A stretch of DNA of 64,000 bases from Octopus sinensis (lineage: Eukaryota), in NCBI RefSeq assembly GCF_006345805.1, contig NC_042998.1:132742001-132806000 (forward strand), written 5' to 3'. Of this stretch, positions 63,018 through 64,000 are shown one piece after another; the stretch's first letter is position 1, and every line of letters starts with the position of its first letter. Made by a program: the position numbers.

Positions 63018-64000
63018 TTATTGTCAATTCTAAATGTGAAACTGTAGCGTAATACTCCTCTTTTACCGAATGGCATTTGGTAAACGTCCCCTTCGTATGT
63101 TTTTGCAAAAAGAAAAAAATAATAATAATAATGATAAATAAATAAATAAATAAATAAAACAAGAAGAAAAAAGAGGAAAAGAAACGTTATTTTAATGAAA
63201 CAGAAGCTAATTTCAAGTGATGGCTTAATATTATTTTCTTATTCCATATTAGCGATGGGAAACAGTATTAGTTCCGAACACTAATAGTGGATATATTCTT
63301 TTCTCCTCTAGGGACAAGGCCTGAAATTTTTAGGGAGGGGCCCAGTCGATTAGATCGACTCAGTACGCAATTGGTATTTAATTGATCGACCCCGAAAGGA
63401 TGAAAGGCAACGTTGACCTCAGTGGAATTTGAAATCAGAACGTAATGGCAGACGAAATACCTATTTTTTACTACTCACAAGGGGCTATACACGGAGGGGA
63501 CAAACAAGGACAGACAAAGGGGTTAAGTCGATTATATCGACCCCAGTGAATAACTGGTACTTAATTTATCGATCCCGAAAAGATGAAAGGCAAAGTCCAC
63601 CTCGGCGGAATTTGAACTCAGAACATAAAGACAGACGAAATACCGCTAAGCATTTCGCCCGGCGTGCTAACGTTTCTTATTTATTTATTGCCCACAAGGA
63701 GCTAAACATAGAGGGGATAAACAAGGACGGACAAAGAGATTAAGTCGATTACATTGACCCCAGTGCATAACTGGTACTTAATTTATCGATCCCGAAAAGA
63801 TGAAAGGCAAAGTCGACCTCGGCGGAATTTGAACTCGGAACGTAAAGACAGACGAAATACCTGTTTCTTTACTACCCACAAGGGGATAAACACAAAGAGG
63901 ACAAACAAGGACAGACAAACGGATTAAGTCGATTATATCGACCCCAGTGCGTAACTGGTACTTATTTAATCGACCCCGAAAGGATGAAAGGCAAAGTCGA

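Follow-up and report, generated by a model that had tools for sequence, protein, structure and literature searches.

A stretch of 64,000 nucleotides of the Octopus sinensis genome (NCBI RefSeq assembly GCF_006345805.1, contig NC_042998.1, positions 132,742,001 to 132,806,000 of the forward strand; here called the window, with positions counted from its first letter) contains two tandem arrays of a short interspersed nuclear element (SINE), in which three of the four joints between units fall at the identical nucleotide inside the head of the SINE itself, at two loci 59 kb apart. This arrangement points to a site-preferring insertion step, inseparable so far from a jump of the reverse transcriptase (RT) between templates, and both template jumping and the spread of pre-formed multimers are live rivals.

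The window is AT-rich and contains no N. When it was searched throughout by blastn, with the two units of a dimer at 3958-4345 as the query, 12 SINE units were found at eight loci, each 139-229 nt long and together covering 3.5% of the window. The copies are short, non-coding, dispersed and flanked by target-site duplications (TSDs). A full-length copy has about 230 nt, and the tails are of two types: tail A, ending in ..CCCCTTGTGGGTAGTAAAGAAATA (the consensus of tail-A units has 234 nt), and tail B, ending in ..GGCCTTGTGCCTAGAGTAGAAAAGG. One array is the dimer Au1+Au2 and the other the four-unit array I0-I1-I2-I3, which occupies 63297-64000 and runs past the end of the window, its 5' end lying outside. 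The coordinates of all units are given in Table 1.

Junctions between SINE units

All four junctions reported in a first-pass annotation of this DNA were confirmed by sequence. The plus-strand junction at 4184|4185 reads ..GTAAAGAAATA|GGTATTTCGTCTG, and those on the minus strand read ..AAAGAAACA|GGTATTTCGTCTG at 63862|63861, ..GTAAAAAATA|GGTATTTCGTCTG at 63462|63461 and ..AATAAATAAATA|AGAAACGTTAGC at 63678|63677. Alignment of the 12 units with MAFFT places the common start of Au2, I1 and I3 at column 50 (consensus position 51, GGTATTTCG) and the start of I2 at column 17 (AGAAACG). Position 51 lies between two words of the head that resemble the A and B boxes of RNA polymerase III (Pol III) promoters, with column 17 just within the A-box-like word, in agreement with the annotation, which had put three junctions at one site between the boxes and the fourth just after the start of the A box. 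No spacer occurs at any of the four joints and tail A is complete at each, so that every internal junction resembles the 3' junction of an ordinary insertion, a complete tail A being set against 'target' DNA. In both arrays the last unit (Au2 and I3) carries tail B, an exchange of tail type that had already been noticed, and the order is (tail A)n followed by tail B.

All six tail-A 3' ends, four at junctions and two in solo copies, stop at the same terminal nucleotide with zero extra bases, a uniformity that is the signature of target-primed initiation at a nick. Four of these six ends adjoin a SINE unit, although SINEs make up 3.5% of the window (binomial 2e-5); with each locus counted once, the figure is two of four (p=0.007). 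None of the five tail-B 3' ends adjoins a SINE (Fisher p=0.06 against tail A). The chance that a second locus would be hit at the same nucleotide of a 234-nt unit is 0.004. The junction pattern thus exceeds chance, and it rests on two loci, with two of the three identical junctions in one array. By inspection, two candidate explanations of the site were rejected: microhomology between tail end and head is absent at position 51, as is complementarity between the bottom-strand primer and the RNA 3' end.

Origin of the tails

A long interspersed nuclear element (LINE) of the L1 superfamily lies at 31967-36003. Its Pfam matches are Exo_endo_phos (8.4e-14), RVT_1 (4.6e-19) and zf-RVT (5.8e-08), and its best relative of solved structure is human L1 ORF2p (1.6e-43). 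APE, RT and a C-terminal zinc knuckle are common to the Tx1 and L1 clades and do not discriminate between them; protein searches (27 and 10 matches) and an Atlas search gave no clade name, only unnamed or generic entries. The element is near full length and has a single APE-RT-zf open reading frame (ORF), with no separate ORF1 seen.

All four tail-A copies that were compared align with the last ~50 nt of this LINE, at scores that none of 500 shuffles reached. The alignment comprises 47 positions and a 3-nt gap, and 33-38 of the 47 positions are identical across the four copies. Being significant in all four, it shows that tail A is LINE-derived, as the first-pass annotation had supposed, and was borrowed from an L1-superfamily (Tx1-like) LINE. 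Tail B was rejected as a derivative of the same element (0/5 significant, p 0.058-0.43), and no tail-B-bearing LINE was found in the window. Two further sets of RT-bearing ORFs, at 13039-15749 (minus strand; RVT_1 5e-29 with zf-RVT) and 19888-22342 (minus strand; RVT_1 1e-21), were also rejected as tail sources, their 3' regions being unlike tail A or tail B. The 3' flanks of tail-B copies (4354, 51533, 63296 and 11655) are AT-rich, with ATAT or ATTAT starts (4/5) or (ATT)n; either AT belongs to the end of tail B, or the partner LINE of tail B inserts preferentially at such places.

Stretches of (TATC)n enclose the LINE at both ends (31835-31964 and 36004-36098; 21/22 matches, p=0.0003). This suggests, from one copy, that it belongs to a microsatellite-homing family; none of the three other (TATC)n arrays in the window (7955-8165, 47010-47222 and 51804-51886) has a LINE end adjoining it. 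Around the first of them (the (TATC)n/(TA)n block at 7955-8165) there is a direct repeat of ~35 nt (ACACAGTCATTAGACTGC..GCCATGCTGCTAC; 7871-7905 and 8219-8253), perhaps the end of an element that was duplicated, or else the result of a segmental duplication. The targets of the SINE and the LINE differ: of the six tail-A SINE ends, four lie at SINE heads, two in unique DNA and none in (TATC)n. The strict specificity for the SINE head that the first-pass annotation had proposed is therefore not supported, as the LINE sits in (TATC)n and two of the six tail-A copies lie in unrelated DNA with ordinary TSDs.

Target-site duplications and a model of sequential insertion

The dimer is bracketed by a TSD with 14 of 15 matches (p=0.004; Table 1), and no repeat surrounds Au1 or Au2 singly (five matches each, equal to the null median). 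With an outer TSD only, the dimer either integrated as one piece or was built seamlessly in place. TSDs around whole arrays only, which the first-pass annotation had named as evidence against its own proposal, are thus what is seen at the dimer; the seamless joining that it envisaged predicts the same, so that the observation decides nothing.

The two solo tail-A copies have perfect TSDs, GGTATACCGA for F (10/10; 41023-41032 and 41261-41270) and GATAATGATGA for H (11/11; 54062-54072 and 53828-53838); those of the tail-B solos G and B match at 11/12 and 9/10 positions. The TSD of F starts with GGTAT, the junction 5-mer, which has a frequency of 0.000875 per position in the window and occurs once in the 234-nt tail-A consensus, at position 51. 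The TSD of H starts with GATAA, and both fit GRTAW (0.004 per position). The GGTAT of F, together with the unique GGTAT of the consensus, fits a nick-site preference acting on resident heads. That F might itself have landed in a decayed SINE head was rejected, blastn similarity being confined to 41036-41260. The last 5 nt of the upstream TSD copy of H can equally be read as SINE head, a 5-nt microhomology at the 5' junction from which it follows that annealing-assisted 5' joining operates here. Microhomology has a general role in the 5' joining of L1.

We tentatively favour a model, to which we give somewhat less than an even chance, in which tail-A copies were inserted one after another, by target-primed reverse transcription, into the head of a resident SINE at a word preferred for nicking. 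The substrate would be a SINE with Pol III box-like motifs already present at the locus. The partner endonuclease would by preference nick before a purine-rich, GGTAT-like word (Y|RRWAW), of which the SINE consensus holds only one, at position 51, where the apical loop of the head hairpin has its 3' edge. Reverse transcription would initiate at the tail end and continue to the 5' end of the RNA, and the resident head upstream of the nick, with ~50 nt of homology, would anneal to the new cDNA, so that the 5' junction would be seamless and no orphan head would be left. The product would be a full head, the new unit and then the resident unit, now starting at position 51, and the original TSD of the resident tail-B element would still bracket the whole array. 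The choice of site would be a preference and not a strict specificity, because tail-A copies also land elsewhere.

That the residents were tail-B copies is supported by the 3' flanks of the tail-B units at the array ends, which start with ATAT like that of the solo tail-B copy G. Private substitutions, higher in tail-B copies (10 in G, 10 in B and 5 in I3 per 120) than in tail-A copies (0-3), also fit older residents that were hit later. Homology-guided 5' joining, inheritance of the promoter and 'self-seeding', which the first-pass annotation had put forward, can only be inferred.

Several observations weigh against sequential insertion. The data come from two loci in one window, and the fourth junction (AGAAAC) does not match GGTAT; the nick word Y|RRWAW fits all four distinct tail-A 3' junction contexts, but was defined after seeing only these four sites. 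The identity between the LINE end and tail A is limited, with a gap as noted above, and the sole partner-like LINE copy in the window sits in a microsatellite and not in a SINE head. The window holds no by-products of such insertions: no orphan heads, including upstream of the dimer, where the annotation had likewise noted none and blastn found none, and no LINE fragments joined at position 51. The outer TSD of the dimer fits the rival explanations equally well. At column 29, Au1 has G, as do F and H, and B, D, G and I2 have A; Au1 therefore resembles a complete tail-A-type unit and not a resident tail-B head, unless a heteroduplex was repaired towards the incoming strand. The comparison of unit ages along the arrays, which had been proposed as a check, gave no 5'-to-3' gradient in private substitutions (3 in I0, 6 in I1 and 5 in I2 of 139; 2 each in Au1 and Au2 of 120), at very low power. 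Furthermore, GAAATA, the final 6 nt of tail A, has its complement in TATTTC, which stands 2 nt from the junction at positions 53-58 (chance ~0.0045 for a 10-nt window), and this pairing could equally serve the docking of one RNA on another in template jumping. Finally, I1 and I2 (63462-63861) are identical at 113 of 119 positions (95%) from position 51 to the core end and at 52 of 65 (80%) in the tail (Fisher p=0.002), a contrast that indicates gene conversion or partial duplication inside the array, that is, exchange at the DNA level.

Structure of the head and possible template jumping

The head contains the box-like words TGGCAGAAACG and GAGTTCAAATTCC, ~62 nt apart, which were recognized by the A- and B-box consensus. 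ARAGORN found no tRNA gene, and Rfam gave no match to a known RNA family at the gathering score, nor any at E<=10 on 3940-4080. Of the tRNA-like head described in the first-pass annotation, only the box-like motifs are seen, ARAGORN and Rfam having returned nothing. A block to RT at a modified anticodon-loop base was dropped as an explanation, the head having no mapping to tRNA positions. The body of the SINE (..TTTGCCTTTCATCCTTTCGGGGTCGATAAAT.AAGTACCAG..) may resemble the CORE domain, a stretch of about 60 bp that is conserved in the body of CORE-SINEs.

When folded, the head forms a long imperfect hairpin with the stem GGGCGAAATGC / G[G/C]ATTTCGTCT. In all four heads that were folded, position 51 falls on the 3' edge of the apical loop or 1 nt inside it. 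The z-scores of the folds are modest (-0.85 to -4.05), and only one of the four heads was unmatched by all 200 shuffles. GAAATA resembles the 5' strand of the apical stem (GAAATG), and each tail|GGTATTTC joint recreates a small hairpin (4140-4200, 63455-63470 and 63855-63870).

The position of the junctions in this fold bears on a second explanation, in which an array arises in a single event: RT starts on a tail-B SINE RNA and, at the apical loop or at an RNA end cleaved there, jumps to the 3' end of a tail-A RNA, sometimes repeatedly, and the concatemer integrates with one TSD. We regard this as rather unlikely, although it accounts for the greater part of the features that sequential insertion explains. 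It agrees with the location of position 51 at the loop edge, with a GAAATA that could dock the acceptor RNA near the junction, with a single TSD around the dimer and none around either unit, with the lack of orphan heads, with an Au1 that is a complete tail-A-type unit including the head at column 29, and with private substitutions that are even in Au1 and Au2 and ungraded in I0, I1 and I2. However, the genomic target of solo F, which starts with GGTAT, is left unexplained by it, and so is the fact that tail B would have been copied first in both arrays (2/2) and all four acceptors would be tail A. Four solo full-length heads (B, D, F and H) were copied through position 51 without a jump, and none of the six solo copies in the window starts there. 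The ends of Pol III transcripts should also bring in bases of the flank or of a U run, whereas all four junctions end exactly at the tail-A terminus. In template-switch chimeras such as U6/L1 the break points are variable in the first-copied RNA, and here the break point is fixed. As for the enzymes, in the part of the R2 study cited, non-LTR RTs (R2 proteins) jump to further 3'UTR RNAs and give head-to-tail repeats (PMC11371274), and template switching is invoked, in the passage concerned, for 5' additions to SINEU, which is mobilised by Tx1 (PMC4494074).

The same hairpin might act in DNA. The palindrome of the head would be extruded and cut at its loop, and the break repaired by endonuclease-independent capture of SINE cDNA. 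In all four heads the most stable local hairpin has its loop edge at position 51, as this would require, but the modest z-scores speak against it, and the clean TSDs of F and H, with their similar starting words, are unaccounted for. Endonuclease-independent insertions usually lack intact 3' ends, and the four tails at the junctions are complete; we consider this origin highly improbable.

Divergence of the units and a possible spread of multimers

The units differ from one another at many positions, as had been noted: identity is 103/119 between Au1 and Au2, 99/118 between I3 and I1, and 102/118 between I3 and Au2. At columns 63, 65 and 114, Au2 and I1 have T, T and T, and I3 has C, A and C; Au2 and I3 differ at columns 63, 65, 114, 136 and 145. 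Of the position-51 units, Au2 and I3 carry tail B and I1 carries tail A. These units therefore represent two or more sequence variants and both tail types, a diversity that speaks against a single founding junction. Units have lengths of 229, 169, 184, 216 and 165 nt and are not equidistant, and the penultimate units differ in variant and 5' extent, Au1 being full length and I2 starting at column 17. A single multimeric master, which the first-pass annotation had named as the alternative to its proposal, is thus unsupported by these two arrays, which differ in unit composition, variants, lengths and 5' extent. Tandem Repeats Finder (TRF) reported a repeat at 63462-63861 only (period 217, 1.8 copies, 90% matches) and did not report the dimer.

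A C-to-T variant creates a run of four T (CATCTTTTCGG) in Au2 (4255-4262), I2 (63595-63602), I1 (63812-63819) and C (15990-16000), that is, in three of the four downstream array units and one of the eight other units (Fisher 0.067). The run sits ~65 nt beyond the junction and could be a Pol III terminator for transcripts of the upstream unit. Tail A has no such T4 terminator, and read-through into the next unit is therefore expected.

These observations bear on a third explanation, which we hold to be unlikely: junctions arose a few times and were then inherited, as pre-formed multimers spread, either through retrotransposition of Pol III transcripts that read through several units and end in tail B, or by DNA duplication, unequal crossing-over and gene conversion. 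Such an origin would agree with the common order of (tail A)n and then tail B, with a TSD around the whole dimer only, with the read-through expected from a tail A free of T4 and with the distribution of the T4 run. The contrast between I1 and I2 shows local homogenisation or partial duplication, and the 217-nt period points the same way. However, the composition of the arrays differs, Au2 and I3 being in different variant states, the penultimate units are unlike and the spacing is uneven, and neither the GGTAT target of F nor the origin of the first junction at that nucleotide is explained. These mechanisms are partly compatible, as one process may create a junction and another spread it.

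The T4 run also permits a form of self-homing, which seems to us quite improbable. A 5' full-length tail-A copy would be transcribed by Pol III through its tail and stop at the CATCTTTT run of a truncated neighbour, ~65 nt past the junction, and the resulting trailer (GGUAUUUCG...), the GAAAUA-TATTTC pairing or both would direct target-primed reverse transcription to the corresponding site of other SINE heads. Specificity would then be guided by RNA and not reside in the protein endonuclease only, and each unit of an array would offer the next copy a target and a terminator and, by homology-guided 5' joining, a promoter as well.

Table 1. SINE units, the TSD of the dimer and the L1-superfamily LINE in the window.
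Feature	Positions	Strand	Description	Method
Upstream dimer repeat	3941..3955	+	ATATGCGTGTATATA	
Dimer Au1+Au2	3956-4353	+	Two SINE units in tandem	blastn, MAFFT
Au1	3956..4184	+	Full-length SINE, complete head, tail A (..CCCCTTGTGGGTAGTAAAGAAATA)	
Au2	4185..4353	+	Begins at consensus position 51 (GGTATTTCGTCTG), without the A-box-like part of the head; tail B	
Downstream dimer repeat	4354..4368	+	ATATGCGTATATATA	
B	11463..11654	+	Solo tail-B SINE, full head, followed by (ATT)n	
C	15917..16060	+	Solo tail-B SINE, 5' end truncated at column 67; (ATT)n and a duplicated 34-nt fragment precede it	
D	16709..16877	-	Old, diverged SINE, full head, tail unrecognisable	
LINE	36003..31967	-	~4-kb L1-superfamily LINE (APE, RT, zf-RVT), one frameshift near 33790	Pfam, structure match
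F	41033..41260	+	Solo tail-A SINE, perfect 10-nt TSD	
G	51534..51703	-	Solo tail-B SINE, 5'-truncated at column 28, internal head deletion	
H	53839..54061	-	Solo tail-A SINE, perfect 11-nt TSD	
Array I0-I1-I2-I3	64000 down to 63297	-	Four SINE units in tandem	
I0	63862..64000	-	Tail-A unit, 5' part beyond the window end	
I1	63678..63861	-	Begins at position 51 (GGTATTTCGTCTG), mutated tail A (..GGGCAATAAATAAATA)	
I2	63462..63677	-	Begins at alignment column 17 (AGAAACGTTAGC), tail A	
I3	63297..63461	-	Begins at position 51, tail B, final unit of the array	

Among the solo copies, the truncated SINE C has directly upstream of it a 91-bp tandem duplication (15769-15950; 2.0 copies, 98% matches), which holds (ATT)n and a 34-nt SINE fragment (ACGTTCTGAG..GGTCGAC); the 5' end of another RT-bearing element adjoins at 15749. 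A 20-nt conserved word of the SINE was compared with prokaryotic genomes as a possible lead to relatives elsewhere and gave one match, dismissed as chance, in a bacterial coding region without a tRNA.

Implications

If the peak at position 51 holds across the genome, this SINE would have its own promoter region as a preferred landing site and would be joined there seamlessly with the help of homology. Every new copy would then have a functional Pol III promoter ahead of it, and arrays would extend at the 5' end. Target-specific retrotransposition of the Tx1 type would be extended from foreign multicopy targets to self-targeting, and there would be a definite path by which scattered SINEs could become tandem arrays and satellite-like DNA. 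The accumulation of clustered copies in SINE-rich genomes would also become easier to explain. Repeat annotation would break up such arrays or merge them wrongly, and too many SINEs would be counted as '5'-truncated'. Should template jumping be the cause, the constant break point would instead point to a strong RT stop or RNA cleavage site in the SINE RNA, one that could be mapped.

Comparison with known systems

Both tRNA-Core SINEs and L1-Tx1 LINEs are abundant in octopus genomes, and SINEs make up 11.6% of the genome of Octopus vulgaris. The octopus CORE-SINEs OR1 and OR2 were reportedly described by Ohshima and Okada in 1994 (cited in PMC4824008 and PMC4758252). A full-text literature search, with supplements outside its range, found no description of arrays in which SINE units meet within their own heads; a composite consensus may already exist in a curated repeat library.

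In the passages of PMC4494074 drawn on here, LINEs of the Tx1 clade often show target specificity and mobilise SINEs, copies of which accumulate in tandem at a single target, a precedent for the proposed sequential insertion; Tx1L inserts into Tx1D, Keno into U2, and Kibi and Koshi into microsatellites. Mutsu inserts into 5S and Dewa into the tRNA-Leu spacer (PMC3706591, in a passage that does not give the clade). The closest system in these sources is Tx1-Mar/SINEU-3 of crocodilians (Kojima 2015, PMC4494074), in which, as we propose here, an L1/Tx1-type LINE mobilises a SINE to one preferred word inside another repeat, and repeated hits produce tandem SINE copies in the same orientation. According to the same part of that paper, however, the target there is a foreign element, Mariner-N4_AMi, whereas here it is the head of the SINE itself; the LINE and the SINE share a target there, whereas the LINE copy here lies in a microsatellite. 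Tandem copies of SINEU-3 sandwich a TSD (PMC4494074), and none of our four junctions has a TSD or spacer; furthermore, the downstream units here have lost their 5' 50 nt. The passage on microsatellite-specific Tx1-clade LINEs lists Kibi in (TC)n, Koshi in (TTC)n and crocodilian Tx1 elements in (TTCC)n or (TTTC)n (PMC4494074), which resemble the octopus LINE flanked on both sides by (TATC)n. The repeat unit here is another one, there is one copy, and this LINE is a candidate member of the Tx1 clade.

The octopus arrays differ from U6/L1 and R2 chimeras in that the break point is fixed (3/4 identical), both partners are the same SINE and as many as three joints follow one another. In U6/L1-type chimeras the upstream partner is 3'-complete, the joint is direct and there is one outer TSD, as in the octopus dimer. 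The part cited on R2 concatemers gives the same likeness (PMC11371274). Dimeric and composite SINE families also exist, among them tRNA dimers and trimers and Alu, and in these families, as far as the cited section goes, two SINE modules stand in tandem within one TSD, as they do here (PMC4758252). In contrast, the octopus arrays differ from each other in unit number, variant and 5' extent, and are thus not copies of one composite consensus.

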